From: a virus
Taxonomy: Duplodnaviria > Caudoviricetes
Length of the DNA: 64,000 nucleotides
Virus record (IMG/VR): IMGVR_UViG_3300002515_000003
Span: 131,572 to 195,571 of that record
Reading direction: 5' to 3' (one strand)
The first letter of the stretch is position 1. Each line of letters begins with the position of its first letter. Shown here piece after piece: positions 1,053 through 61,793 of the stretch. The notes under the pieces were generated by a model. That model was not told where the DNA came from. It worked only from the letters and a program-made list of their open reading frames with translations, and did no database searches. Position numbers and translations under genes: made by a program.

Positions 1053-1508
1053 TTATTTTAAATACTCAATTACTTTTTTCATTAACTCTAAATCTACATC
1101 CTTACCATTTATCTTAAACTCACCTTTTGCTTTAGATAACACAGTTGCAGTTACGCGAAATTTAATAGGGGTTTGATAGTATTTTCCATAACCACCCATA
1201 ATAATATCTTTCATAGGATTTATTTCATTGTAAATACTCAAAATATAATTATCAATTTTATTTATATTCATTTTAGTTACATATGGCGTATATAAGTTTG
1301 AAATTTCATCTGTTTCTATATCTGTAATAGTAATTAAGTATTCTTCATCAGTAAATTCAACTTGGTCACTATTCACAGTAATTGTATTATCACAATCTAC
1401 AATTACATCTATTTTGAAAACTATATCAGGATTAAATTCAATTCTTGCAATAACTCCTTCAATTCCCTTAAATATACCATTTGTAATTCTAACGTTTTTC
1501 GTATTCAT
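1053..1508 (-). CDS. hypothetical protein with KOW-like N-terminus
   Basis: VRITNGIFKGIEGVI at the N-terminus; AGGAG RBS. Confidence 0.5.
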   Translation of the reverse strand: MNTKNVRITNGIFKGIEGVIARIEFNPDIVFKIDVIVDCDNTITVNSDQVEFTDEEYLITITDIETDEISNLYTPYVTKMNINKIDNYILSIYNEINPMKDIIMGGYGKYYQTPIKFRVTATVLSKAKGEFKINGKDVDLELMKKVIEYLK

Positions 1509-1756: not shown

Positions 1757-3843
1757 TTAATTTATTTCATATACTGTATAAGAACTTTTAGATATTGTCT
1801 TTATTAGTTCACCTAAGAATTTAACTTCTAAAGAATCCTCATCTACCATAATACTACCTTCTTTGCAATTATCTTTTAATAAAGAATCTAATACACTAGC
1901 TTCATATTGTCTATAGTTTGTAGTTATTGCCTCAGAAAAATCTTTAGTAAAACTATTAGTTTTTAAATATTCTTCAACTTGTTCTTTTAAATTTAAAGAT
2001 TTTAAAGTTTTATAATTTTTAAGTTTATCTTCAATGCCATACATAAAATCTCTTAACCATTCTTTTATCCCTTCGATATGATATTCTTTAGCTTGTTCTA
2101 TAGTTAATTCATTCTCACTAGCTTCATCAAAATAATCAAGATAAGTAGTTTTTACACATTCCATTAAATCAGACGATATTATTTTTTCTTTTATATTATC
2201 TAGTTTTTCTGAGTCTATTAAATGAAAATTAAAAGAATGTCCTGAGCCACCTCCATGATTCTTACCTAATGTCATAATATGAAAATCTAAATCAAAATAT
2301 TTATGAGAATTATCATTTTTATCGCTATATGTAATTTTACGTAGGTTAAATTTTAAGTTCATATCATTATTTTTGTTCCAATAACTAATAAAGCATTCTG
2401 AAATAAAACTATCTTTATCCTTTAAACTATCTATAATATTGTTTGACATAGTTTGTAAAAATTGTTTTAATTCAGTGATACATTTATCATTAAGTTTTTC
2501 TTTTAATTCTGCATTATCCTTAAATCCAAATAACTCATATAAGTTTTTATTCATTCCACCTGTTCTTATTATGTATTTCTCATCAATATCTTCTATAACA
2601 CTTAATAATGATTCATATAATGTACCTTTCCCCATTTTAAGTAGTTCTTCTTTATATTCAAAATTCAATTCTAATTTCTTAGATTTCATAATATCTCATC
2701 TCTCCTTTTATTCTGACTTTTCTCTTTTCAAATATTCTTCATAAACACAATCATTTTTCTCATCAACTTCTGAATATTTAATTGTGTAAAAATCTAATAT
2801 ATTAATTCTATCAATTGTATTATATAAATCATCATCCATATTTTCCTCAATATTTTTTACATGAGCTTTTATATAATGTTTAGCTACTTCAAAAGCAAAT
2901 AACTTTGCTACAAAATGTTTATAATAGTAATTTAATCCACATTCGTGATAGTAAGGATATATTTCTTCATCTGAAAGATAATCTTGCCCTTTATACCAAA
3001 AATGACTACATCCATCCCATTTTATACTACAACTTAATAAAAAAACTTCTCCATATACTGTATTGTCCATTGACCATGAATTAGGAATTGTTATGAATCC
3101 TCCAAATGAATGTGTCCACGTTTCTGTTTGTCTAACTGTTGCTATTATTGTTCCTGTTTTATCAATTAATTCTGCTTTTAACATATGTAATTATCACTCC
3201 TTTTTAAATTTAATTAATTACATTCTCTATATTCTTCTCTATATAATTCAATGTTATCATCTCTTAAATCAACTATGTACCATTTATTGCACTTCGGACA
3301 CATAAACCATGCATTGACTTTCTCTTCTCCCGTTAGCTCTAATTCAGTGTTATCATCAGGACATTTATACATTTTAATTTATCTCCTTTTAATTTATAAT
3401 TTATAGTCGTAATCTTCATCTATAAATACTGTAGTTATTCTATTTTTTTTAATAAACCTACTAAAATCAATATTGATTATTATTTTATCGTCTACACCCG
3501 AATGTCTTTCTTTTAATATATCAACTATATTTATATATTTTTTACTCATTTCTTCGTCACAATAAATATTAACTACTTTATCTGTTTCTATTACAATATT
3601 ATTAAAATTGTTCACTTCATCCTTTCTAATTATATTCCTATCGCCTCTGTTTTTTATTACATGACCGTCTTTAATATATACACTTGATAAATCTTTAATT
3701 GCTTTAGTATATGCTGGAAAATCCTCTTGTGCACAGATACACTCTTTTTCTGATTCATGACATTTTGCACAATATATTGTATTTGAATAACTCATTATTA
3801 ATACAACTCCCTTTTCTATTTTAATTTTATATGTAGTCCTCAA
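1757..3843 (-). CDS. three hypothetical phage proteins (1757-2689, 2708-3184, 3394-~3795)
   Basis: Co-oriented ORFs with RBSs; no recognisable motif. Confidence 0.6.
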
Positions 3844-29757: not shown

Positions 29758-30906
29758 TTAACAAGCCATTTCTAATCCTAATTCTTTTAATCCTTGTTTT
29801 AATATATTCTTACTTGCATTTTCATCTCTATTATGGTTAGTCCCACATTCTTCACAAATCCATTCTCTTACAGATAGTAATTTTACTTTTTTATTTACTG
29901 CTCCACACTCTGAACATATTTGACTGCTTGCAAACCAAGGACTGACTTTATGATAAGTTCTTCCTTTCCATAAAGCTTTATATTCTAGTTGTCTTGTAAA
30001 TTCTGACCATGATACATCTTGAATACTCTTTGCCAAATTATGATTTTTTATCATATTGGAAACTTGAAGGTCTTCTGAAATTATTACTTGATTATCGTTA
30101 GTAATTTCATTTGACAATTTATTTGAGAAATCTTTTCTAATATTAGTTATTTTTTCATGAACTCTAGCTATTTTAACAGTCTGTTTCTTATAATTATTGC
30201 TATGAAGTTCCATCTTACATAACTGTCTTTGTAATTTTATTAATTTTTCTTCATATTTGTATAATGCTTTAGGTCTTTGCACATGATTATTGTTTGTATC
30301 TATAAGAAATTCTTTTAAACCTAAATCGAACCCTATTACATTATTACTTATAGGTAATTGAATGTTTTCTACGTCAGCTAAAATACTAACAAAATATTTA
30401 CCACTTGGAACTTTGTTTATTGTAGCTGATTTAATTTTACCTATGAATTCCCTGTGCAATTTACATTCCACCCATTTTAATTTTGGTAATTTGATTTTAT
30501 TGTTGTCAAAATTTAATTCTATATTATTATTAGTGAAGTTAGTTTTATATGAATAATTGTGGTCATGTTTAGATTTAAACTTAGGAAAACCTAATTCGCC
30601 ACTTCCTTGTTTTGCTCTTCTAAAGAAATTTTGATAAGCAAAATCTAAATTGTAGATAGAATTAGTTAGAGCAAATTTATCTATTTCTTTAAGCCATAAA
30701 TATTCTTTCTTTAATTCTCTATTACAAATATTATTACAATCAATTTTAGATAAAGATTTTTTATCATTCTTATATAATTCTATTTTCTTAGCAAGTATTT
30801 GATTATATACAAACCTACAACTTCCAAAAGTCTTAGCTAATTGTGTTTCTTGTTCTTTATTTGGGTATAATCTATATTTATAAGCTTTTAACATAAATAA
30901 ATTCAC
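29758..30906 (-). CDS. tnpB: TnpB RNA-guided endonuclease
   Basis: [14 protein letters not shown] (D), ISEDL (E), CSECG/CEECG Zn finger, HNRDENA (D). Confidence 0.95.
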
Positions 30907-38960: not shown

Positions 38961-39941
38961 TTATTCTTCTGCTTTAGGATTGACCAAATAATAATTAATC
39001 ATTAGGTTATTGTAATTTTTTACATTTTCATTTGCTTCAAATTGAACTTGTTTAAAATCTTCAACCTCGAGTTTTCCTTTTTCAACTTCAATTGCTTTTA
39101 GTTTATTTAATTTTGCACTCATAAATACATCACCAATACTTAAATTAGAATAACCTGCATCAACAAGTAATTTTTTAGCTCTTGAGCATATTGACTGTTT
39201 ACTAAGAAAGTCATCACCATTAACTGTTGTCGGACGGCAAATATAATCTGACGATTTTAGGTTCGCAGTAATTCTATCTCCAAATCCTGCTTTTCCTCTC
39301 CTGTAATATATATCTTCTCCCCATGCTGTATTTATTACATCAATTACTCTTCTAGGAAGTTCTACCTCTCTTACTGAACCATCCTTTTCAGTTAATTTAA
39401 CACAATTTGTAATTTCATTAATATCGGATTTAGTAAGATTTTGAATTTCATTTGTACTTACAAGAAAATACGATAATATTATTGTAACGAAATCTTGATA
39501 GTTATTGCCTACGTCTTCCATAGCCCAAACTTGTTCTTCACTTAGAAATTTTGTGGGCAAGTGTAACGCATTTAACATAGGCATGATGTGTTGATTAAAT
39601 TTTACTAATTTCCAACTATTTATCATTGTTTCATTATAACCTTCTGCTGTACTCCATGATGAGTAGAGAGTGCAAATCGTGTAAAAAGCCCTGAGAGAAC
39701 TGTAACTATCTGTAAAGTTATCAGAGCAACAGTCCATTACTTCTTCTCTGGTAAAATTTGACATATCTTTGTTTATCTTTTTTTCCCAACGTGAGCCGTT
39801 AATTAAAAACACACAATAACTAGTCCTGCTGTGGTCTTCTTCTAAATAATCTTGTAAAAACTTTTCTTTTGTTTTTCGATTGTATAATTTTTCTAATAAA
39901 TTTTCACTAACTTCCATTGGTGTTTTCTCTATAATATCCAT
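38961..39941 (-). CDS. degenerate integrase-fold protein, MrpR/YopR-like lytic repressor
   Basis: About 325 aa; WEKKINKDMSNF SAM-like domain, NYQD...EIQNL; lacks the catalytic R/HxxR set; directly after a YopQ-like gene as in SPbeta. Confidence 0.7.
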   Translation of the reverse strand: MDIIEKTPMEVSENLLEKLYNRKTKEKFLQDYLEEDHSRTSYCVFLINGSRWEKKINKDMSNFTREEVMDCCSDNFTDSYSSLRAFYTICTLYSSWSTAEGYNETMINSWKLVKFNQHIMPMLNALHLPTKFLSEEQVWAMEDVGNNYQDFVTIILSYFLVSTNEIQNLTKSDINEITNCVKLTEKDGSVREVELPRRVIDVINTAWGEDIYYRRGKAGFGDRITANLKSSDYICRPTTVNGDDFLSKQSICSRAKKLLVDAGYSNLSIGDVFMSAKLNKLKAIEVEKGKLEVEDFKQVQFEANENVKNYNNLMINYYLVNPKAEE

Positions 39942-39943
39942 TT

Positions 39944-41410
39944 TTATTCCTCTCCTTTTTCAATATCATGCAATTCTACTATCTTTTTAAAATAATCAAA
40001 AATCACACGTAAACTTTTAGGATTTTTCTTGTACATTTCCATCTCTCTCCAATTTTCATGCGTTTTATCTAAATTTAATTCGCCACTTCTAATCATATCT
40101 TTTATAATTCTTTTTACTTCTTTATTATCTCTACCTAATAATTCTTTCGATAAAGCAACATATCCTACGAAAACATTATAATTTAAGGCAATACTTTCTT
40201 TCCTTAACGCTTTTAAATCAGTGTAATCATATTTTTTTAAATATTCCCCTATTACAGTATCAAACACAGTCGAGAAAGTTTCTAGATAATCGTCATTTCT
40301 TGCCGATATACTCAAATCTATATCTGCTATTTTCAAAGCACTATTAAGAATTCCATAAGTAGTATATTTAGTATTATCTCCAATTTCATCTATAGTATTA
40401 GCTATTTTACCTTTCATTTCACCTGATTCGTTTAAAGCGTCAATAAATATATTATTATCATTCTTTTCTAATGTCTTACTATAATCAACGGATATCGGAT
40501 TACGTTTGAATTCTCGACTCACATACTCTTGGGCTTCACGAACTGTGAAGTTTGTTATGGAGACCATAAACCCATATTCTAATGTCTTACCACTTTCATT
40601 TGCTTTAGCCACTGCATCTGTGCAAGCCAGAATTCTATGAAATCCGTCAGTTATGAAAACTGTTTTTAAAATTGTTAATGTTTTTTCTTTCTCATCGTAT
40701 ATTATACCTTTTTCATTAAATTTACTTGTCTTGAGTATGTTTAGTGTGATGAGATTCGCCGTAAAATTATCATCGTATATTATTTTTCCTATCTCATCTA
40801 CACTTTTCCATGTCACGTTAGGTTGGCGTAAGAGCATACCTTTAACATTTATTATCTTAGGGTCTCTTTGCATTGCTGTATCATATCCTAGAAATCCGTT
40901 TGACATATATAAATCTATATCATAGTTTGATACAAATGGACACATATATTGATTCTTAACTTTTACAACATTTCTAAATACCATTCTATCTGTTTTAGTT
41001 TTCTTGGCATCAATATCATAATATTGTCTTATCTTTTCAATTTTATACTCAGGAAAATAATATATTGGATTAATTGATTCAACTAATTTTTGCTCTTTTA
41101 ATTTCTCTTCGCTTGACTCAAATGTACTTTTTAAAAACTCTTTTGAAACAAACTCATACAAATAAACACACCAAACTCCTAATTCACTTTCATCTAAAGT
41201 ATTTAATATTATTTGTCCTTTTAAAATCTTATCAACTTTTCTATCTACCATTTGCTTCTCTTCATATACTCCCTGCATATAATCTCTCAAGTCTTTACTA
41301 GTATTCTTCTTTGCAATTACTACAAACATATTTTCTAACAACTCTTCTATTGATTTTGTTACTTCAGTGGTTTCTTTGTTTTCTATAGTCTCACTCATAA
41401 TTATCAACAC
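39944..41410 (-). CDS. YopQ-like DndB/ParB-fold protein
   Basis: ITLNI...ITDGFHR (DGQHR-like); size and position match SPbeta yopQ. Confidence 0.7.
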   Translation of the reverse strand: MLIIMSETIENKETTEVTKSIEELLENMFVVIAKKNTSKDLRDYMQGVYEEKQMVDRKVDKILKGQIILNTLDESELGVWCVYLYEFVSKEFLKSTFESSEEKLKEQKLVESINPIYYFPEYKIEKIRQYYDIDAKKTKTDRMVFRNVVKVKNQYMCPFVSNYDIDLYMSNGFLGYDTAMQRDPKIINVKGMLLRQPNVTWKSVDEIGKIIYDDNFTANLITLNILKTSKFNEKGIIYDEKEKTLTILKTVFITDGFHRILACTDAVAKANESGKTLEYGFMVSITNFTVREAQEYVSREFKRNPISVDYSKTLEKNDNNIFIDALNESGEMKGKIANTIDEIGDNTKYTTYGILNSALKIADIDLSISARNDDYLETFSTVFDTVIGEYLKKYDYTDLKALRKESIALNYNVFVGYVALSKELLGRDNKEVKRIIKDMIRSGELNLDKTHENWREMEMYKKNPKSLRVIFDYFKKIVELHDIEKGEE

Positions 41411-41696: not shown

Positions 41697-42173
41697 TCAT
41701 TTATCTCTTAATAATTTCAACAAAATTTCATACTCTCCTGTTTTTATACATATTTCTAACAACTTTTTAATATAAAACTCGGATTTCATTGTGTTTTTAG
41801 TAAATCCGTCTAGCCTATAGCCCCATTGTTGAAATTGAAAAGTTGTATTTTTACTATTAATAAAGATATAATATCTAATCAAAAAATACAAACTTTCCAT
41901 TTTCATCCAATTACAATTTAAATTATTTGCTTTTCTTAAACTCAGTAGAATATAATTTTTAGCTTTTTCAATTTGATTTGTATTATAGTAACTTTTTATA
42001 ATTACCATTAATATCATCCATATATAATAATCGTCTTTATAGTCTTGATTTTCATTCTTTCTTAGTAATCTGTAGACTTTTTTACCTATTTTTATTGATT
42101 CTTGATAATTTTTATTTACATAAAACTCTTCAAACACTTCTTTACAAATTTTATCGGATAGTTTTTCTTCCAT
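41697..42173 (-). CDS. TPR-like helical protein, paralog of the C-terminal domain of 48345-49319
   Basis: GGGGA RBS before ATG at 42173; NKNYQESIKIG...YIWMIL...QIEKAKNYILLSL. Confidence 0.6.
   Translation of the reverse strand: MEEKLSDKICKEVFEEFYVNKNYQESIKIGKKVYRLLRKNENQDYKDDYYIWMILMVIIKSYYNTNQIEKAKNYILLSLRKANNLNCNWMKMESLYFLIRYYIFINSKNTTFQFQQWGYRLDGFTKNTMKSEFYIKKLLEICIKTGEYEILLKLLRDK
41772..41834. repeat. dispersed 63-bp element, copy 2 (inside the TPR ORF)
   Basis: ATAAAACTCGGATTTCAT, 12 nt, then AAATCCGTCTAGCCTATAGCCCCATTgTTGAAA. Confidence 0.85.
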
Positions 42174-42183
42174 ATTTATCCCC

Positions 42184-42816
42184 CTATACTGCCACACAAA
42201 CTTTTTCATTAGTATTTGTATCTACGTTCATTATATCATTATAATACACTTTATACGATTTTCCAAATTCACTACAGTATCTTTTTAATTCTGCAACTCC
42301 ATTATTATACATTCTCAATAAATCTTGATTCTGAGTAAGTTGAAAAAGTTCTTTTAACTTTTTAATTGTGAAAACTTGCTCATCTATTATCGTCATATCT
42401 ATATTTTGAACAACAATTACTTCTTTTTTTACATGAATATTTTCTTTCATTCCAAACTGAATCGCAATCGCTTTATTAACTTTTACCATTGTCTCATTTG
42501 AAAGTTTACCTATATAGTCTCCTATAAGAAACTTAGGAACATTTGTAGTTGATTCCACTTGAATTACACTATCCTTAGTTAATTTATTCATATTGTCTCT
42601 CATAATTAAAACTTGTGTAGGTAATTTACATTTGTCTGTTTTACTTGTTAAAGTACATACTTGGACATTGGGACTAAACTTATTTCCCATCTCGTTTTGA
42701 AGTATTACCGCAGGATGCTTCCCGTATTGTAAACTACTTCCCTCTATATGTGGAAAGTCTACCCAAAATATATCTCCACGTTTGATTAGTTTGTTGTTAT
42801 TCATATTTGTATTCAT
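42184..42816 (-). CDS. PemK/MazF-family protein with C-terminal helical extension
   Basis: KRGDIFWVDF, GKHPAVILQNEMGNKFSP, TLTS, LPTQV. Confidence 0.88.
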   Translation of the reverse strand: MNTNMNNNKLIKRGDIFWVDFPHIEGSSLQYGKHPAVILQNEMGNKFSPNVQVCTLTSKTDKCKLPTQVLIMRDNMNKLTKDSVIQVESTTNVPKFLIGDYIGKLSNETMVKVNKAIAIQFGMKENIHVKKEVIVVQNIDMTIIDEQVFTIKKLKELFQLTQNQDLLRMYNNGVAELKRYCSEFGKSYKVYYNDIMNVDTNTNEKVCVAV

Positions 42817-43067: not shown

Positions 43068-44740
43068 TTATTGTTTCTTTTCCTTACTTAAACATTTAAC
43101 TATTTCCTCAAGCTCATTCATATCACTATTCTCATACTCAAAGATATAAAAATTATTTTTAAATTGCATATTCCTATTCACGCCTTTATTCCTAATCAGA
43201 ACAATTTTACTTTCTTTAAGTAAAGAATAATCATTATCTAAAAATTTAACCATAAATTTAATTCCAATCTTATAATTATGTATTATCTTCATAAATTCTT
43301 CTAATGTTTCTATTTCAATATATTCATAATCCTTAATAGATTCTGAGTCTTCAACTTCCCATTGCCACTCAAAATTCTGTATCAAATATGGCTTATGTGT
43401 TTTCCAATATTCTATTTGTAGTCTACTTTGATTTAAATCAAATTCATTTTTATTTTTACTCATTTTATTGTATCTCCTTTAAATAATTTTATATTTTATT
43501 ATCAGAATAGTAGTTCTTATTAATATGGAAACTACTATTATCAAGCCACTATTTATATGGTATATGCTATTTCTTCTTTTCTTTTAGTTTAGCTTGACTT
43601 AATGCCGAACCTGCAAAAGTTTTAGTTACTTTGCTTGTCTTTTTACTATGTAATGCTTTTGAGGCTTTGCTTGCCACTTCCTCTAATGTTTGTTTAGTAT
43701 TTTTCTTTGTCATTATAATCATCTCCTTTATATATTATTATTTTATATTAAATTTAAACTAAATCAATACCTAATATATTAGACAACAAAACTCTTTCGT
43801 CATGTTCGGCTATATCAACATAAACTGGATAGTATTCTTTTAAATCTCTATCATTTTCAATTGCCATTCTCATATAATCTATATTTGTAAAACTTGACAC
43901 TCTTGCAAATATCTTTAGTTCATTAGAAACTATAAATAATATATCAAACTTTTCTAAGTTCTCTCTTTGGTATTTCCATATGTATTTAGCAGTATCATCA
44001 TATGTTCTAATACAGTTTTTATTATTAATTACATCTATACATTTAGCTTCATCTTCTCTTCCTTCTTCACTATAAGCACCTATTAAAAAATATTCATTCA
44101 TTATTAATTGCTCCTTCTATGATGGTCATAACCCTATATTTTATTATTTAAAGTTAATATATTGATTTTTCAACATATATTAATTTATTTATAACTTCTT
44201 CTGAAAAAACTTCTCTTAACTTCTCTTTATTTGTATTAATTAAATTAGTAATAATGTTATCTAAATTTATCTCAAATATATAATGTGCTAAATTAGGATA
44301 TTTAGTTAATATCAATACATAAGATTCGCATGTTAATCTCTTACGTAGTTCAATATCCTCTAAGATAAACAATAAATCTATTATTTCTGTAGTTATTTTA
44401 TCATACACACCAACCTCGCTTTTAGTAGGTTTTATATCTTTATTCATATATTTATCACCTCTTTTTTTATGTTATTATGTGTTTCAATTTTCCATAAAAT
44501 AATCCTTTCAGTTACTTATATTGATTCTTTATAATGTATTTCGCAAACATCTATTGCCTCATAACCTTCATCTCTTCTTGTTTCATCTAAATAACTACCT
44601 ATAGCAAGGTTATTGCAATAGTCGCACTTTAATTTAATAATATTTCCAATACTAAGTTTATGAAATTTTAAACCTTCAATATCTTCTTTAATTGACATTT
44701 TTACCATCCTCTCTAACTTTAAAATATTTAATTCCAACAT
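43068..44740 (-). CDS. small hypothetical genes, including an unlisted basic 48-aa ORF at 43567-43713
   Basis: Hand translation MTKKNTKQTLEEVASKASKALHSKKTSKVTKTFAGSALSQAK with AGGAG RBS; the other ORFs are in the track. Confidence 0.55.
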
Positions 44741-45239
44741 AATCAGTTAAATAAACACCATTCTCAGAACAATAAAATTTACATCCATCTTTTAACATTT
44801 TCTCTACATCTAATTCTAATATCACGACCTCTCCATGTCTTTTTCCTACTTTAATAGATGTTTCAATATCTTTTGATAAATGAACATATTGTCTAGAACC
44901 ATGTTTAATTCCTTCTTTAAGGATAGTATTTAAGAATCTTCTACTTGTTCCATGATATAATTCTGTAGGTGGAATAATTTCTTTAAGACTTAAATTTACT
45001 TTAATAGAATGTCCTTGGTTAGCTCTAATCATATCTCCATTTAAACTATATGAATAGCGTTGCTTATCATCCTCATTTACAATTCTATTTAAATCTATCT
45101 TTGTAATATTCATTCCTGTGATAAGATTATTTACACTTATGTAACCATTTTTATCCATAGTCAATCCTATTACTTCAGGTTTATGTCTTAAAACTAAACT
45201 TAAAAACTTACTAAATTTCATATCTCTATTATTTATCAT
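44688..45239 (-). CDS. kptA: RNA 2'-phosphotransferase (KptA/Tpt1)
   Basis: SLVLRHKP, DKQRY, IRANQGHS, LYHGT, RQYVHLS. Confidence 0.93.
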   Translation of the reverse strand: MINNRDMKFSKFLSLVLRHKPEVIGLTMDKNGYISVNNLITGMNITKIDLNRIVNEDDKQRYSYSLNGDMIRANQGHSIKVNLSLKEIIPPTELYHGTSRRFLNTILKEGIKHGSRQYVHLSKDIETSIKVGKRHGEVVILELDVEKMLKDGCKFYCSENGVYLTDYVGIKYFKVREDGKNVN

Positions 45240-46543: not shown

Positions 46544-47947
46544 TTATATGTATATAAATGTGAAACCTTCGTATTGTTTTTGTTTACCTCTGCACATCAA
46601 TGATACACTAGACCTCTTAAATTTTATCCCATATTTTTCTTCGGAGTCATTGCAAAGTTTTTTTATACTAATAAATGAATCTAAATATACTTTATTTTTA
46701 AATACGCTTACTTTTTTACCATTTGTTATTTTAGCATCATATTCACACCAACCTAATTCATTCCCTTTTTTAAGATACTTTGTAACAGTAACCCTAGCTA
46801 GTTTCATTAAAATTGCAATATCTTTTGTACCCCATAAGGGATTTTCTTTTTTTTAATCACATACTACCTTAACTAAATTACTCAACGCAAATTCCTCAGC
46901 TTTATTCCAATTTATCTGACTTAAATCAAAAAGGTTATTTAAAATGCTATCTTGTATATTATTCTTTATGTATTTTTGTTCTGATTTTTCACAATCAATT
47001 CTTATCATTTCAAACCCATACCTATCAGCCATATCATCCTTATAATCATCTATCATTCTAATTTCTTCTTTTGTTTGTCCATTCATTTTATTATCTTTTG
47101 TATGGAATCCTCCATCTACTTCAATTATATAATCTATATTATCTTTTTTGAAATAGAAGTCATACTTACGAGGTTTTATCCAATCAGGAATATATTCTGT
47201 AGAAAATTCTATATCCAATTGCTCTAATATAGAAAATGTAAACTTTTCAGGATATGATTTCCCATCACCACATGAACAATTCATTGAATGAACCTTATAA
47301 ATTGCATTTAATGACATTAACTTGTTTTTTACTCTTCCACAATCAGGACAAATAGGGTAAATCTTCTTATCACTTGCTTTAGAATAAGTTTTTGCAATTT
47401 CTTCACCAACAATCGGTATCATCCAAGGTGTAGTATCCCATATTGTATTAAATCCTAATACAGTTTTTTGAGGAAAAGGACAACATACAGGACACCCACA
47501 TTTTTGTGTAATAAGTGAACTTTCAACCATCCAATCTTCATAATCACATTTATTACATTTATATTTATACCATTTTTCATTTTTATTATACTTACTTTTA
47601 CCACTCTTTGTTCTATATTCTCTATTCAATATAATTAAATCCCTTTTTTCATCTTTGAATATAGTTTCAACTTTAATTTTAAAATCTCCACTTCTTAACC
47701 CCAATACAGTTCTAATATTTCCATTAACAAAAACAACTGTGTTTATTTTAATAATTTTACCTTTAATATATTCAGTAGAAAGCATATGTGTTTTTGCGTT
47801 GTAATCTACAATTTCTATTTCTCCTTCCAATCCATCATAAATAAATTTAACCCTAATCCCGATACTATTCCTCCAATCAATTACTCCACTAGGTTGACCT
47901 TTTCCGAATCTCCATCTTGGCAAATCTTCTGTAAATACTTCCCTCAA
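46544..47947 (-). pseudogene. Zn-ribbon/PD-(D/E)XK (Vsr/DUF559-like) endonuclease with one in-frame stop codon
   Basis: SYPEKF, YDFYF, IIEVDGGFH, IRIDC; TAA at 46853-46855 is followed in frame by KKENPLWGTKDIAILMKLARVTV (HTH-like). Confidence 0.7.
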
Positions 47948-48031: not shown

Positions 48032-48066
48032 AAGTATACTCAAACCAATAATATTTGAGTATACTT
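48032..48066. promoter_or_regulatory. perfect 13-bp inverted repeat (operator or terminator)
   Basis: AAGTATACTCAAA-N9-TTTGAGTATACTT, downstream of the peptide gene. Confidence 0.6.
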
Positions 48067-48120: not shown

Positions 48121-48273
48121 CTATTTTGATACTGTAGAACTTATGAAACATGATGGACTTCTCATTGCAAGCAATTTTTGACCTGCTTGTTGTGAGGTAA
48201 ACACTATACCTGCAACCACCAATACAAGACACACCATTTTCAATACTTTTTTTAATACCATTTTCTTTTTCAT
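48121..48273 (-). CDS. putative secreted signalling pro-peptide (50 aa, not in ORF track)
   Basis: AAGGAAG RBS; MKKKMVLKKVLKMVCLVLVVAGIVFTSQQAGQKLLAMRSPSCFISSTVSK: basic N-region, hydrophobic core, short polar tail. Confidence 0.75.
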   Translation of the reverse strand: MKKKMVLKKVLKMVCLVLVVAGIVFTSQQAGQKLLAMRSPSCFISSTVSK

Positions 48274-48344
48274 TCTAAATCAACTTCCTTTTGATATATA
48301 TTTAAAATATCTGTTTTTAGGCAGATATCTCATTGCCATTTATA

Positions 48345-49319
48345 TCAAATACACAAGGCTTCTATTTCATCCTCCATTGCATTGATAATTTCTTCTTTAT
48401 ATTTAGCACAATTGTGAACCGTCATGTCAGTAACTACAACCGTTTTTGTTATATTACATATACTTTTCATACGATTCTTATTTAATTTCATAGATGCTAC
48501 AGAAAATATGCATTGTAATCTTAAAATTGTCTCATTTTCATTTTTGTAATGATGACTGAGGGAAGTATAAATTTTTGAAGCATCATTTATTTCTCCCATA
48601 GATTCATAGGTGTTGGCTAAATTCCACATAGAAATACTATAATTATGGCTAAACTTTTCAGGGTCTGAAATATGACTAAGAGCTTCTTGAATTTTAATCA
48701 GTGCTAATTCTTTATTTCCCAATCCTAAATTTGCAGTAGCTTGAATATATAAGCTATACCAAATAAATTCCAGTCTTTTTGCAATTTTAGACTTAGTAGA
48801 CAATTCATGCAGTTCTAGAGCAAGTGAAATCGCTTTTTTGTATTCTCTATTGTGGTCACATGCATATACTCTAGACCTTAAATTTTCTAATTTGACTTTA
48901 TCATTATCAACTTTAGTGTTATCTAAAAACAAGTTTTCTAAATCTAGAGCATTAAAATTATTACTTGAAAGGTCTAATTGTTTCTCTATAGCATTTTGTA
49001 TTTCTATTTGGTCTTTTATGTTTGTAATTTTATCTACAAAGGATAATACATCAGCTTTGTCGATTGTTAAAATCTGATTACACATCAGTTTCGAACTTTT
49101 GTCAAGATTATATGTTTCTTTTAAATCAATATGAGTATCTAAATACTTAACTAAATTTGAGGTCAAAGGTATAACGTTGACACTGCCACCTACACGAATG
49201 TTTGTTCTCCATTGAGAAATTATGACAGCTGGGTGTTTCCCATTAATGACACTTTTACAATTATTTTTAAAATCACAAATCCATATATCAAATCTATATA
49301 TATTCTTCTTCTTTGCCAT
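48345..49319 (-). CDS. PemK/MazF domain fused to a TPR-like domain
   Basis: N-terminal DIWICDF, GKHPAVIIS, VIPLTS, QILTIDK; C-terminal TPR helices (ATANLGLGNKELAL, WNLANTYESMGEINDASKIY). Confidence 0.8.
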   Translation of the reverse strand: MAKKKNIYRFDIWICDFKNNCKSVINGKHPAVIISQWRTNIRVGGSVNVIPLTSNLVKYLDTHIDLKETYNLDKSSKLMCNQILTIDKADVLSFVDKITNIKDQIEIQNAIEKQLDLSSNNFNALDLENLFLDNTKVDNDKVKLENLRSRVYACDHNREYKKAISLALELHELSTKSKIAKRLEFIWYSLYIQATANLGLGNKELALIKIQEALSHISDPEKFSHNYSISMWNLANTYESMGEINDASKIYTSLSHHYKNENETILRLQCIFSVASMKLNKNRMKSICNITKTVVVTDMTVHNCAKYKEEIINAMEDEIEALCI

Positions 49320-49440: not shown

Positions 49441-49911
49441 TTATACTAATTGCAAACTATAAACCAATAAATCTTTATCCATCATAGTTTCATTTTTAAT
49501 TATTGGCTCTTCGTCCTCATTTCCAAACCATATATTAAACATATACACAAATTCTTGTTTAAAGTCTTGTACTATTGTTGTTAAACAATATTCCCCTAAG
49601 TTACATTTTATAATGTCTAATCCTCTGTCGTTCACATCTTCCATTAAGCTTTCATATAATTTATTCTTTTCTTTTGATATTAAAATGTATTCCATTATTT
49701 CTCCAATATCTTCCACTGATTCTTGATTGTTAGTGTTATCTACCCACATTACCACTCCTTCCGTTGTTTGGATTAAAGATTTTATAGGTTCATTACCTTT
49801 GCATACTTCAAAATTTAAGTCTGCTACTGTAACCATCCTTCCTAATCCGTTCTCATTTATCTCATTGTTTTTATCAATGAATACATTTTTGTACATTAAT
49901 AATTCCCCCAT
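49441..49911 (-). CDS. hypothetical protein, paralog of 50331-50744
   Basis: MYKNVFIDK...ADL...CKGNE...EGVVMW...ESVEDIGEIMEYI. Confidence 0.6.
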   Translation of the reverse strand: MGELLMYKNVFIDKNNEINENGLGRMVTVADLNFEVCKGNEPIKSLIQTTEGVVMWVDNTNNQESVEDIGEIMEYILISKEKNKLYESLMEDVNDRGLDIIKCNLGEYCLTTIVQDFKQEFVYMFNIWFGNEDEEPIIKNETMMDKDLLVYSLQLV

Positions 49912-50330: not shown

Positions 50331-50744
50331 TTATATTGCAATTAATTTACCAAACCTATAAAAATATATAATTAGATGTAATATTACAACTCCTAATATA
50401 TATGAAGCCATAAATAAGTGCTTTCTTATTATTTCCCTAATTTTTATTATATTTCTTTTATTTTCTTTTTTAACAACAATATTTTCTATCTCTATTGGAA
50501 TAGATATCTCAGACATTATATCACTTATTTTTATATACTCACAGATTTCACCGACCTCTTGAATGCTTTCCTCATCGCTGAAATTACACATCCATACAAA
50601 TATTCCATCAGATAATTCAAGCACTCCCAAAACCTCTTCTCCACCTTCGCATAAACTTTCTCTTAAATCTGCACTACTTGCTAATAAATCACAACCTTTC
50701 AATACTAAATCCCCATCTTTATTAATAAAAACTTTTTTATACAT
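50331..50744 (-). CDS. hypothetical protein with C-terminal TM
   Basis: MYKKVFINK...ADL...CEGGE...DGIFVW...ESIQEVGEICEYI. Confidence 0.6.
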   Translation of the reverse strand: MYKKVFINKDGDLVLKGCDLLASSADLRESLCEGGEEVLGVLELSDGIFVWMCNFSDEESIQEVGEICEYIKISDIMSEISIPIEIENIVVKKENKRNIIKIREIIRKHLFMASYILGVVILHLIIYFYRFGKLIAI

Positions 50745-51182: not shown

Positions 51183-51473
51183 ATGTTTATAAGTAGGATA
51201 AAAGAACTTAGATTAAAAAAAGGAATTTCTCAATATGAACTTGGAATATTATCCAAAATTAGTCAAACTCAAATTTCAAATATCGAGAGGAATAATACTT
51301 CAACCACCCTCTCGACATTAGAAAAACTTAGTGTGGCGTTAGATGTATGCGTTTACGAAACTTTTTATTTTAAATGTAATAAACACCGTATTTGTAATAA
51401 TAATTCCAAAATAGGATTAAATTGTTATATGAATATAGAATATGAGAAGGATAATGGAAAGAATAAAATTTAG
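51183..51473 (+). CDS. XRE-family HTH regulator
   Basis: IKELRLKKGISQYELG...ISNIERN...TLEKLSVAL; AAGGAG RBS; hairpin terminator at about 51478-51508; the only convincing plus-strand gene. Confidence 0.9.
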   Translation: MFISRIKELRLKKGISQYELGILSKISQTQISNIERNNTSTTLSTLEKLSVALDVCVYETFYFKCNKHRICNNNSKIGLNCYMNIEYEKDNGKNKI

Positions 51474-59122: not shown

Positions 59123-61793
59123 ATATGAATAGGTAAGTTTTTGATGTTATCTCCAACTTTTCCCCTCATCCACACCGTACGTGAGACTTTCATCTCATAC
59201 GGCGTTCCCTCAATTATTATTTTACTTTTATTTTATATACAATTCACAATTTCCAACCAATTTACGAAGTTTATTAATCTTTTTTAAATTTTCTTTATTG
59301 AAAAATTTACTAATTTTATTTATATATTTTTCTATGGTTTCTTTTGTTATAGCATGAATTAGTTTATGGATATCTGAAATGACAAATGTTAAATTTGAAT
59401 ATTCATCTTTCCCACCAATGTTCCTAGGTATCTTATGATGTGAATCCATATTACTTATTTGTAACGATTCTCCTGTTATACTGCATTTACCCTTTTGTCC
59501 TACATATAGTGATATCCTATTATCGTTGTATTCAGTTGTTTCACCTTGTATTGGGTTTTCCATGATATATCTTAACGTTTGAAAATTGACACCATTAAGT
59601 TTATCATGGATTATTTCTCTACCTTCTTTAGTAAAGTTACATATATTTTGCGAAAAATTCATTACATTTTTAGTTTTTATTCCTGCTATTGGAAATAGTG
59701 CTATACCCTTTATATATATTGTTTTGTACTTGTATTCACCATAGTATTTCATATAAGCTTTACTTTTAGTACCTGTACTACCTCGTATTTGGATGGTACT
59801 ATTAAATAGGTTTTTGCTTACTAAGAAAGCAATTTTGGAAAAGTCTAAGTTTACATATGTTGCATATCTGTAGTAGTTATGCAATCCTAGTATGGATGCA
59901 TTATATCTATTTACAGTTGATACAGTTGGACTTTTCTTTATCTCCTTGATTCTTTCCAATATACTTTTTATAACTTTCTTTGTTGCTTTATCATTGATGT
60001 TGGACTTAATAACCTTTTTCTTGCCCTTTTTGATAACTTTCAGTTTGAATCCTAGGAAATTTGAATAATTCTTTTTGATATTAATTACTTTTGACTTTTC
60101 TAGACTAATATCTAAATACAACCTTTGTTTTAACCAGTTTTTAGTTGCAATAAATGCCTTTTGAGCCGTCTCATAATCTCTACACATTAATTTGAAGTCG
60201 TCTGCGTATCTGACTATAAACATTTCTTTGAGATTGGTGGTTCTTAATGCTCTACCTTTGTGGGTATCATTATATTTATGTTTAGTTTCAAATGTTTCCC
60301 ATTGACTACTAATCCACCAATCCAACTCATTTAGCACTATATTGCTTAATAAAGGTGATAAAATTCCACCTTGAGGTGTACCTTTGGTTGGGATACCTAT
60401 TCCTTTGATTTCAGCCTTTAGCATTTTTGAGATTATTGATATCAAACTTTTGTCTTGCACACCTAAAGTCCACATTTGTTTTAACAACTTACCATGATTT
60501 ACATTATCAAAGAAACCTTTAATGTCAATATCCACTACATAATGTAGATGGTTTCTATTAGCCAAGGATGTCATTCTTGATATTGCATGATGTGTGCTTC
60601 TATTAGGTCTAAATCCATAATTGTGATTATGAAATTTTGCTTCACATATAGGTTCTAATATTTGTTTGATACATTGCTGAATAAGTCTGTCCTCAATACA
60701 TGGTATTCCTAACGGTCTTGTACCTGTGCCACCGTTTTTAGGTATATCCACTCTTCTAACTGATTCGGGTTTATAGTCTATTAGTCTTTCTTTTACATAT
60801 TTAACAAGAAATTTAGGGTCTGTTTCTGCTAAATTCATTATATTGCTGAAATTAGTTCCAACTGTTATGCTCCCTTTATTTCTCTTTATATTTCGATATG
60901 CTAAGAGTATGTTTCTATCATCAGTAATTAATTCCATAAGATTTTTAAATTTCAAGTTGTCTTTGCTTTGTTTATATAGGTTATCTTGCACCTCTTGAAA
61001 GTCGTAATATTCGTTATTTCTCAGTAATCTTTTCTTTTTAAACTTCTTCAGTTTGACTGTCATTAGTCAGCTAATTCCTCATTTCTGCTGAATTTTGCTT
61101 CTCTTAGTCTTACTCGAACCTAATAATAATTGTTTTATTGTATTTTTTTTATAAAATAATATTGACTTGTGGCTATCCCTCCACTTCTTATTATCAAAGT
61201 TTCATAGGTACTATGCCACTACTTTACATCAATTAAGATAAGTTATAATTTTACTCTTTCCTTATCAACACTTCATAGATATTAAGTTCTCCATGTTTGA
61301 TGCTTACAACGTTCCAATAACTCTTATCCATACATATACTTTTAGGTAATTCCTTTAAGCCTGTGTGCTTGATACTGCCTATAACAGTATAAGGTTGTTC
61401 ATAGAAACTATTTTTACTTAACCTCACACACCCTACATCTTGAGTAGTGGGAACATTTCTGTTCTTTCCAAATTTAGACTCGTACATTCGGAATTTCGTC
61501 AGTTCCAATGGAACATTCTTACCATGAGTATTTTATGGACTCCCGACCTATCGTACACTCGACTACCTCTAGTTCGCTTTTCCTTTACTTTGTATATAAC
61601 ATAGCATTAGGGTGTACTCTCAGCCGACTTCACCGAGCTTATAACCATTTTATTCTTAACAATAAAATCGCTATTCGGAGTATTAGAGAAAGCCCTTCAA
61701 GACGTTACCCCCTCATTTGACTTTTAAAGTTATTAGTTCTCTTAACTCTTATTGAGTTAATGGCTAATCTTTTCAATTAGCAACGTTTCGCAC
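59123..61793 (-). mobile_element. group II intron (Ll.LtrB-like)
   Basis: 5' GTGCG at 61793; domain V/VI GAACGCCGTATGAGATGAAAGTCTCACGTACGGTGTG...CCTATTCATAT ending at 59123; putative EBS1 AGTTTCT (61409-61403) complementary to the exon end AGAAACT. Confidence 0.93.
59228..61063 (-). CDS. ltrA: group II intron reverse transcriptase/maturase with HNH domain
   Basis: RPLGIP, GFRPNRS, GTPQGGILSPLL, RYADD, HHKIP...NL. Confidence 0.96.
   Translation of the reverse strand: MTVKLKKFKKKRLLRNNEYYDFQEVQDNLYKQSKDNLKFKNLMELITDDRNILLAYRNIKRNKGSITVGTNFSNIMNLAETDPKFLVKYVKERLIDYKPESVRRVDIPKNGGTGTRPLGIPCIEDRLIQQCIKQILEPICEAKFHNHNYGFRPNRSTHHAISRMTSLANRNHLHYVVDIDIKGFFDNVNHGKLLKQMWTLGVQDKSLISIISKMLKAEIKGIGIPTKGTPQGGILSPLLSNIVLNELDWWISSQWETFETKHKYNDTHKGRALRTTNLKEMFIVRYADDFKLMCRDYETAQKAFIATKNWLKQRLYLDISLEKSKVINIKKNYSNFLGFKLKVIKKGKKKVIKSNINDKATKKVIKSILERIKEIKKSPTVSTVNRYNASILGLHNYYRYATYVNLDFSKIAFLVSKNLFNSTIQIRGSTGTKSKAYMKYYGEYKYKTIYIKGIALFPIAGIKTKNVMNFSQNICNFTKEGREIIHDKLNGVNFQTLRYIMENPIQGETTEYNDNRISLYVGQKGKCSITGESLQISNMDSHHKIPRNIGGKDEYSNLTFVISDIHKLIHAITKETIEKYINKISKFFNKENLKKINKLRKLVGNCELYIK

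Follow-up and report, generated by a model that had tools for sequence, protein, structure and literature searches.

A MazF–TPR fusion gene followed by a candidate pro-peptide gene in a clostridial phage genome: a possible peptide receptor with a toxin-type output domain

The window analysed here is a stretch of 64,000 nucleotides (nt), positions 131,572 to 195,571 of the IMG/VR virus record IMGVR_UViG_3300002515_000003, a 195.6-kb virus contig estimated to be 95% complete. On its minus strand lies a unit composed of a gene that joins a MazF/PemK-fold domain to a tetratricopeptide repeat (TPR) domain, hereafter the receptor gene, and a small gene for a putative pro-peptide. The features of this unit are as follows (positions are those of the window; aa, amino acids; ORF, open reading frame; SD, Shine-Dalgarno sequence; AF2, AlphaFold2; pLDDT, predicted local distance difference test):

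48345-49319, minus strand: MazF–TPR fusion gene, 324 aa, defined by the ORF list, the Pfam PemK match and the AF2 model; putative cytoplasmic peptide receptor/effector.
48978-49295, minus strand: MazF/PemK-fold domain, aa 9-114; His29 at the catalytic-Arg position, Thr53 kept, motif PLTSNL.
48906-48977, minus strand: linker, aa 115-138; conserved acidic/hydrophobic motif NALDLENLF, pLDDT <50.
48351-48905, minus strand: TPR-type domain, aa 139-323, nine helices in the AF2 model; putative peptide-binding module.
48274-48344, minus strand: spacer between receptor and peptide genes, with a hairpin at ~48303-48332, the conserved TTTAAATATATA at 48295-48306 and the SD AAGGAAG at 48283-48289.
48121-48273, minus strand: pro-peptide gene, 50 aa; SD, K-rich N-end, hydrophobic core and tail ...LAMRSPSCFISSTVSK.
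48032-48066, minus strand: 13-bp perfect inverted repeat ~55 nt past the peptide stop, read from the sequence; it marks the end of the unit.

An earlier note on this DNA had claimed that the 324-aa protein begins with a PemK/MazF fold, and the ORF at 48345-49319 bears this out. Pfam PemK_toxin matches aa 9-114 (E 6.8e-17, 62 bits against a cut-off of 23.1), and the PHROG family annotated as a MazF-like growth inhibitor matches the same domain at E 4e-15. Among proteins of known structure, S. aureus MazF was matched by this domain in the PDB (E 8e-6, phmmer), and MazF-mt1 was matched in Foldseek (E 3e-4). The C-terminal domain gave only sub-threshold TPR matches by sequence in Pfam (TPR_2, E 0.004; TPR_12, E 0.006; SNAP, 5e-5). 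An AF2 model of the fusion protein, built on a 7-sequence alignment, folds aa 139-323 into nine helices with pLDDT values of 81–97, and every structural neighbour of this modelled domain is a TPR domain. The neighbours include LGN (Z 17.7), NprR-NprX (17.6), the Rap protein of phage phi3T (16.3), RapF (16.2) and RapH (15.6); receptors of the RRNPP class are top-ranked, yet they tie with eukaryotic TPRs (within 1 Z unit). As modelled, then, the C-terminal fold is a TPR of the Rap/NprR/LGN type, and the TPR-like helices that had been claimed from the sequence alone are confirmed. Co-folding of the TPR domain with pro-peptide residues 21-50 (5-row alignments for each, no controls) gave a score of 0.02 (mark 0.32) and no answer, neither for nor against binding.

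A word-indexed search returned only five relatives of the fusion protein, 36–68% identical, all 314–326 aa long and all with PemK. A profile of the C-terminal domain, run against 1.84 billion representatives, matched 144 proteins at E ≤ 1e-3 and 44 at E ≤ 1e-10; these comprise ~25 long forms (253–336 aa, matched over about residues 125-320), ~50 short forms (150–235 aa) that consist of the C-terminal domain alone, and generic multi-repeat TPR proteins. The Pfam census was taken on the 25 long-form rows plus the window protein, leaving out the short forms, the multi-repeat TPR proteins and the probable fragments P0093 and P0117, and all 26 aligned representatives carry PemK at E ≤ 1e-3. The MazF–TPR fusion is a real family, with members in phages and in Clostridium genomes; two of its clusters come from cultured Clostridium isolates, where the protein is annotated merely as 'PemK/MazF family toxin'. 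NCBIfam has no family for the receptor, PADLOC (2023 library, E ≤ 0.01) assigned none of the six proteins scanned to a family, and the ESM Atlas returned generic TPR clusters only (0.81, at the level of a lead). No fused form longer than 567 aa was found, GenBank phages yielded no full-length relative of the receptor (none of eight matches covers at least 80%), and scans of genome contigs returned plain MazF-domain proteins only. The stand-alone TPR proteins P0034 and P0010 had no match in phages or viral contigs. We set aside locus L009, where a high-GC phage encodes a canonical MazF that is unrelated to the family. When genomes were searched at the class level with the stand-alone TPR profile, only weak matches came up, in ~430–470-aa proteins with a helix-turn-helix (HTH) and TPRs; these reflect generic TPR similarity and were set aside as well.

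Eleven further loci were compared with that of the window: L001, an IMG/VR contig of 180 kb; L002 and L003, metagenome contigs with the complete gene; L008, a 34-kb viral contig whose receptor is 27% identical; and L036 to L042, seven full-length copies from a single bacterial family, of which 393 genomes were scored and 5 carried such copies. L004 and L005 are cut short and contain no downstream DNA, and they were therefore left out. At all 12 loci with downstream sequence, with receptors diverged to ~27% identity, a small ORF of 41–70 aa follows on the same strand, 16–76 nt past the receptor stop. Each is preceded by an SD (AAGGAAG, AGGAGG, GAGGTG or AGGGGG), and in each product an N-end with two to six K/R residues leads into a hydrophobic core, which is followed by a Pro-containing tail. 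In the window, the ORF begins 71 nt downstream of the fusion gene on the same strand, with the SD AAGGAAG ~12 nt upstream of it, and its product runs from a K-rich N-end through an uncharged hydrophobic core into a 20-aa tail. As a control for chance, we applied a crude signal-peptide filter to the 475 start-to-stop ORFs of 35–70 aa in this AT-rich window; five passed, two of which are the pro-peptide ORF read from two starts, leaving a background of 3 in 473. The same filter was passed at 11 of the 12 loci, L038 being rejected solely for a tail of more than 30 aa. Collectively, these results uphold what had been described before: a 50-aa ORF with a ribosome-binding site, a signal-peptide shape and a short tail, about 70 bp from the receptor gene, in a layout like that of RRNPP receptors and their pro-peptides. 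The earlier note had also proposed to ask whether homologs are followed by such an ORF, and none of the 12 lacks it.

The tails fall into four classes: ...RSPSCFISSTVSK (window), ...RSPGGFISFTVLK and ...RSPGGSIILMNSLK; ...DPPTGGVILQLLK, ...IDPPIVFLQQQ and ...VDPPMP; ...TDSPIVWSIKQPQVSK and two relatives; and ...GGGGPIPTGAFFMTR and ...GGGGVVPINGIYLIK. Across the loci, the Pro-containing motif takes the form RSP, DPP, DSP or GGGP, and by eye most pro-peptides have an (A/V/S/T/I/L)-x-A motif after the hydrophobic core. One genome, G671, carries three receptor–peptide pairs (L036, L041 and L042), whose tails are all different. The precursor encoded at L038 (ORF at 2459-2671, plus strand) is 70 aa long; its signal peptide is clear (ASA|Q), and DPPM occurs three times in its tail, which suggests that it may give rise to several mature peptides. 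Pheromone precursors typically show both traits, several pairs with different tails in one genome and a tail repeated within a precursor. When the window is compared with L002, the ratio of nonsynonymous to synonymous substitution (dN/dS) of the pro-peptide is 0.46, and the tail is more replaced than the signal part (proportion of nonsynonymous differences, pN, 0.29 vs 0.16). L039 and L040 are 76% identical in the MazF part and 65% in the TPR part and only 31% in the tail, whereas L037 and L041, with 77% and 74%, have tails that are 94% identical. Across 66 pairs, which are not independent of one another, the Spearman coefficient of tail identity is 0.51 with TPR identity and 0.33 with MazF-domain identity; because shared ancestry confounds it, the tail/TPR correlation is only consistent with co-evolution. 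Judged from the sequences compared, receptor and tail diverge together.

The TPR domain, the MazF-like domain and the peptide gene also occur in other combinations. L047 has a stand-alone TPR gene (163 aa), followed by a small K-rich/hydrophobic ORF that ends in ...EPPLPHGVTT; there is no MazF gene upstream, and the SD is weak. L045 is a clean split, in which a MazF-like gene (181 aa) is separated by a 6-nt gap from a TPR gene (183 aa); at ~1300-1449 (minus strand) of this locus, we found an SD and a frame with a hydrophobic stretch ending in ...MIDPPGG, with neither an in-frame start nor an N-region, and the SD-spaced TTG is out of frame. The window itself holds a further pair:

42184-42816, minus strand: MazF-like gene, 210 aa, also with GKHP.
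41697-42209, minus strand: TPR-like gene, 170 aa, overlapping the former by 26 nt.

Taken together, the arrangements at L047 and L045 indicate that the TPR–peptide link is the constant one and that MazF and TPR work together whether they are fused or not; at the level of sequence, the pairing of TPR and peptide genes persists without MazF at L047. Because such split MazF and TPR gene pairs exist, an antitoxin role of the TPR domain, as suggested in the earlier note, is plausible. As a side observation, MazF-domain proteins with C-terminal extensions of 60–100 aa, like the 210-aa second MazF of the window, occur in Clostridia genomes at L011 (2968-3651) and L014 (588-1154).

In HMMER alignments of the MazF-fold domain, His29 lies opposite R24 of S. 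aureus MazF and Thr53 opposite T47, positions that we take to be those of the catalytic Arg and Thr of MazF (R25/T48 in B. subtilis, R29/T52 in E. coli). His occupies the Arg position in 25 of the 26 family representatives, with Arg in the remaining one, as well as in all seven genome copies and both split MazF-like genes. Thr53 is invariant among six close relatives, and L001 has Ser-Ser there; across the 26-sequence family, His29 and Ser54 are nearly invariant. This conservation would fit either an active site that uses His or a groove kept for the binding of RNA or MazE. In the linker, A124, L127, E128 and F131 are invariant in seven close relatives, and as a matter of speculation the NALDLENLF motif might be a built-in MazE-like segment. 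The two ORFs upstream of the fusion gene gave no Pfam match to antitoxin families, MazE/PemI included, at E ≤ 1; at this level and for these two ORFs, the absence of a recognisable MazE nearby, as noted before, holds.

The spacer is more conserved than either ORF that it separates: between the window and L002 it is 86% identical at the nt level, compared to 68% for the receptor ORF. TTTAAATATATA lies just upstream of the peptide SD at 8 of the 12 loci (window, L001, L002, L003, L008, L037, L041 and L042), and a hairpin whose stem sequences are lineage-specific abuts it. Folded singly, four of five spacers form the hairpin, with z-scores between -1.0 and -2.2 (-1.9 for the window), and RNAalifold on the five spacers gave no consensus structure. 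The hairpin and TTTAAATATATA might serve as an attenuator, a promoter or a processing site; a promoter scan was at chance level (12 found vs 11.1 expected). The inverted repeat at 48032-48066, to which similar hairpins exist in L001 and L002, was not called in a terminator scan and is not a canonical terminator, because it has no U-tract on the minus strand.

The surroundings of the unit point to a clostridial phage of the SPbeta type, as the earlier note had proposed. The DNA polymerase of the record, which carries PolIII-type replication genes, is 66% identical to those of the Clostridioides phages LIBA6276/LIBA2945, and homologs of yopQ (E 8e-16 to SPBc2 yopQ, tblastn) and MrpR (Pfam MrpR_N_CB, E 2e-8; phrog_5830, E 4e-29) lie downstream of the fusion gene. 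The neighbouring features are:

51183-51473, plus strand: XRE/Cro-C1-type HTH gene, divergent, at the head of the operon; HTH_3, E 1e-11.
50331-50744 and 49441-49911, minus strand: two paralogous upstream genes, of 137 and 156 aa, respectively; no Pfam or PHROG match.
38961-41410, minus strand: yopQ-like (488 aa) and MrpR/YopR-like (326 aa) genes of a lysogeny core.

On the minus strand, the order is the divergent XRE HTH gene, the two paralogous genes, the MazF–TPR gene, the peptide gene and the hairpin, then a homing-endonuclease-like gene, ~10 small genes including Tpt1/KptA, the second MazF gene, the TPR-like gene, and the yopQ-like and MrpR-like genes; the corresponding order in SPbeta is aimR-aimP-(aimX)-yopMNOP-yopQ-yopR. 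A divergent HTH gene upstream of the receptor was also found by eye in L001 and L002, through PHROG repressor/regulator families in L008, and through Pfam in L041 and L042. In the window, L001, L002 and L042 (957-1442), the receptor gene is preceded by genes for 120–161-aa proteins of one family; the protein of L042 is homologous to the family of the window with an hhalign probability of 99%. We rejected a general conserved third component at this position, as only one of eight upstream proteins from other loci is homologous (L042) and the 82-aa upstream protein of L008 reached an hhalign probability of 2%. At L038, the gene right after the peptide gene belongs to phrog_5830 (E 2e-6), the PHROG of the MrpR-like protein of the window; a direct BLASTP comparison of the two proteins was not significant (E 0.07). 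The placement of the cassette is compatible with a decision module and is no proof of one.

We compared the cassette with known systems. According to the arbitrium studies, the phi3T peptide withholds AimX, a MazE-like antitoxin of host MazF, and lysogeny needs MazF activity; AimX, which acts differently in other arbitrium phages, and YosL are both MazE-like antitoxins that bind host MazF, while MazE is bound by YopM of SPbeta, where arbitrium also controls the yopMNOPQ-mrpR operon. These studies bear out the statement in the earlier note that arbitrium acts via host MazEF. The cassette resembles arbitrium in that a phage gene for a TPR-type receptor is followed on the same strand by a gene for a ~40–50-aa Sec-type pro-peptide (in SPBc2, yopK with 386 aa and yopL with 41 aa), in its location on an SPbeta-like element where homologs of yopQ and yopR/MrpR follow on that strand, and in that the pathway meets a MazF-type RNase. 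It differs in that the MazF fold is part of the receptor, which lacks an HTH, so that the transcriptional step (aimX) would be unneeded, in its clostridial host, in its longer, Pro-containing tails, and in its distance of ~6.9 kb from the repressor core, to which it is not adjacent. A search of the 195-kb record for a homolog of SPbeta AimR found none at E ≤ 0.1, a weak negative that had no positive control.

The traits of RRNPP systems that are found here are a TPR-type domain, an adjacent pro-peptide gene, and a Bacillota host or mobile element (Clostridium clusters, Clostridioides phages). Unlike in Rap-Phr and NprR-NprX, the N-terminal module is a MazF/PemK beta-barrel (26 of 26) and not a three-helix bundle or an HTH, the TPR domain has ~4.5 repeats, and sequence searches of Pfam and the PDB detected no homology. 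With the MazF/PemK type II toxins of S. aureus, B. subtilis and M. tuberculosis, the protein shares the fold, most motifs and the position of the catalytic Thr, but it has His in place of Arg, a C-terminal TPR, no detected MazE/PemI gene, and a secreted-type peptide gene that follows. In CapRel-type fused toxin–antitoxin defence proteins, a C-terminal regulatory domain could restrain the N-terminal toxin until a ligand binds. The fusion protein likewise has a toxin domain and a C-terminal regulatory domain in one polypeptide; here, however, the regulatory domain is a TPR, a secreted-type peptide gene is linked to it, and PADLOC gives no match. A precedent for peptides that act on MazF is found in the work on extracellular death factor (EDF), whose quorum-sensing peptides are reported to raise MazF endoribonuclease activity directly (PMC5930309, PMC3668371). 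EDF is chromosomal, its peptide NNWNN deriving from zwf (PMC4742708), and it is reported to act on MazF itself, with neither a TPR receptor nor an adjacent pro-peptide gene. Full-text searches of the literature found no TPR receptor fused to MazF/PemK with a peptide gene; 'MazF' and 'PemK' occur 0 times in the main texts of the RRNPP_detector and RRNPPA structural-phylogeny papers (PMC10075063, PMC12700828), the supplementary tables of which could list such pairs uncommented.

We lean slightly toward reading the unit as a receptor–pro-peptide cassette of the RRNPP/arbitrium type, the output of which is a MazF-fold domain instead of an HTH. The pro-peptide would leave the cell, be trimmed to a short C-terminal peptide and return through an Opp-type system, and the level of the peptide would rise as infected or lysogenic cells become denser. 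This peptide may bind the concave face of the TPR domain and thereby alter the restraint that this domain, perhaps through the acidic linker helix, would impose on the MazF-fold domain. The activity switched in this way could be RNA cleavage via His29/Thr53 or the binding of host MazE. Since the arbitrium peptide of phi3T/SPbeta leaves host MazF active and so favours lysogeny, the likely output by analogy would be a density-dependent push toward lysogeny or dormancy, whereby the switch could work in either direction.

Several observations weigh against this reading. Eukaryotic TPRs of the LGN/KLC type tie with NprR within 1 Z unit, so that the fold alone is not specific to RRNPP receptors, and with ~4.5 repeats the domain is shorter than most of these. 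The 27 PDB sequence matches of the fusion protein include no RRNPP chain, Pfam scans of the receptor gave only generic TPR matches and no named RRNPP family, and an hhalign comparison with clostridial HTH+TPR regulators returned a probability of 8%. No peptide gene follows the split pair of the window (41697-42816), and that of L045 is probably frameshifted or decayed, as it looks from the missing in-frame start and N-region. The cassette is ~6.9 kb and ~11 genes away from the yopQ/MrpR core, and L036 adjoins a response-regulator-like gene (by eye), with nothing phage-like in the flanks that were inspected. The N-terminal domain of the AF2 model is of low confidence (pLDDT 50–70), and RNase activity of the MazF-fold domain is uncertain because the catalytic Arg is His in 25 of the 26 representatives. 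The small proteins encoded upstream, which are mostly acidic and non-homologous, could also be unrecognised antitoxins.

The split pairs, in which MazF and TPR are separate genes in the toxin-first order of some toxin–antitoxin pairs (overlapping by 26 nt in the window, 6 nt apart at L045), are what one would expect if the unit were a fused or split toxin–antitoxin or abortive-infection module. The TPR domain would then act as an antitoxin, in cis or in trans, or sense a protein of the host or of an invading phage, and the small membrane-targeted protein would be an anchor, an exclusion factor or a toxic peptide and not a diffusible signal. The lack of a MazE detectable by Pfam, the window pair without a peptide gene, and the fact that cassettes lie in prophages and plasmid-like surroundings, in which genes for defence tend to be clustered, agree with this explanation. 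We nevertheless regard it as unlikely: the small ORF, with its signal-peptide shape and co-diverging tail, is kept at all 12 fused loci, and the stand-alone TPR gene of L047 retains it without MazF; one genome carries three pairs that differ in their tails, the tail motif is repeated within one precursor, and none of the six proteins scanned matches a PADLOC defence family. The peptide–receptor logic could also be kept with a MazF-fold domain that is catalytically dead and either captures host MazE, in the manner of a decoy or sponge, or binds RNA, thereby freeing or modulating host MazF as YopM of SPbeta does. Such a role would suit the replacement of Arg by His in the 25 representatives, the seven genome copies and both split genes, and it has parallels in YopM, which binds MazE, and in AimX and YosL, which bind MazF. 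It appears distinctly unlikely to us, because one member keeps Arg and because the near-invariant His29 and Thr53/Ser54 fit a maintained active site, His being a common general acid/base of RNases. Finally, phage genomes often encode small membrane proteins with a signal-peptide-like shape, and there may be no signalling at all: the small ORF would be an unrelated co-transcribed membrane protein, and MazF–TPR a constitutive phage 'moron' RNase with a domain for protein–protein interaction. This is very unlikely in view of the conservation of the peptide ORF at 12 of 12 loci, next to receptors as little as ~27% identical and in different phages with different flanking genes, of the Pro-containing motif shared by the tails, and of the faster evolution of the tail than of the signal part.

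The receptor–pro-peptide reading can be extended, more tentatively, to clostridial phages and prophages in general. These elements could use one-step peptide signalling, in which a TPR sensor joined or coupled to a MazF-fold RNase would read density as RNA cleavage or MazE capture with no transcription factor; such a short-circuited arbitrium would serve lysogeny, dormancy or altruistic shutdown, with pherotypes diversifying among co-resident elements. To our knowledge, all characterised RRNPP/arbitrium receptors act via DNA binding or by binding a regulator protein. If the reading is true, Gram-positive peptide signalling would gain a new class of output, in which the receptor is joined to an RNase fold of the toxin type. 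The link between arbitrium and MazEF, which has so far been known only as an indirect one, via the host toxin, in Bacillus phages, would gain a direct, phage-encoded counterpart in clostridia. If it is peptide-gated, the fusion protein would be a compact ligand-switchable RNase. A comparison of the split with the fused forms would amount to a natural experiment on the restraint of the MazF fold by the TPR domain.

Other genes in the window and at the related loci are recorded here. A homing-endonuclease-like gene stands directly after the peptide gene in the window (46853-47947, minus strand), L001 (7333-8745), L002 (5387-6208) and L003 (1393-2190). The genes differ, that of the window belonging to phrog_4538/9084, with L001 alike by eye, and that of L002 being an HNH gene of phrog_559, with L003 alike by eye; the four related loci thus carry endonuclease genes of different families there, and insertions seem to have occurred repeatedly at the site after the peptide gene. 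A gene at 44688-45239 (minus strand), flanked by the two MazF-like genes of the window, encodes an RNA 2'-phosphotransferase of the Tpt1/KptA family (Pfam, E 3e-51), an enzyme of the RNA-repair type. A transposase gene at 29758-30906 (minus strand; phrog_506, E 3e-127) and a reverse transcriptase gene at 59228-61063 (minus strand; phrog_1423, E 7e-74) point to mobile elements inside the phage genome.

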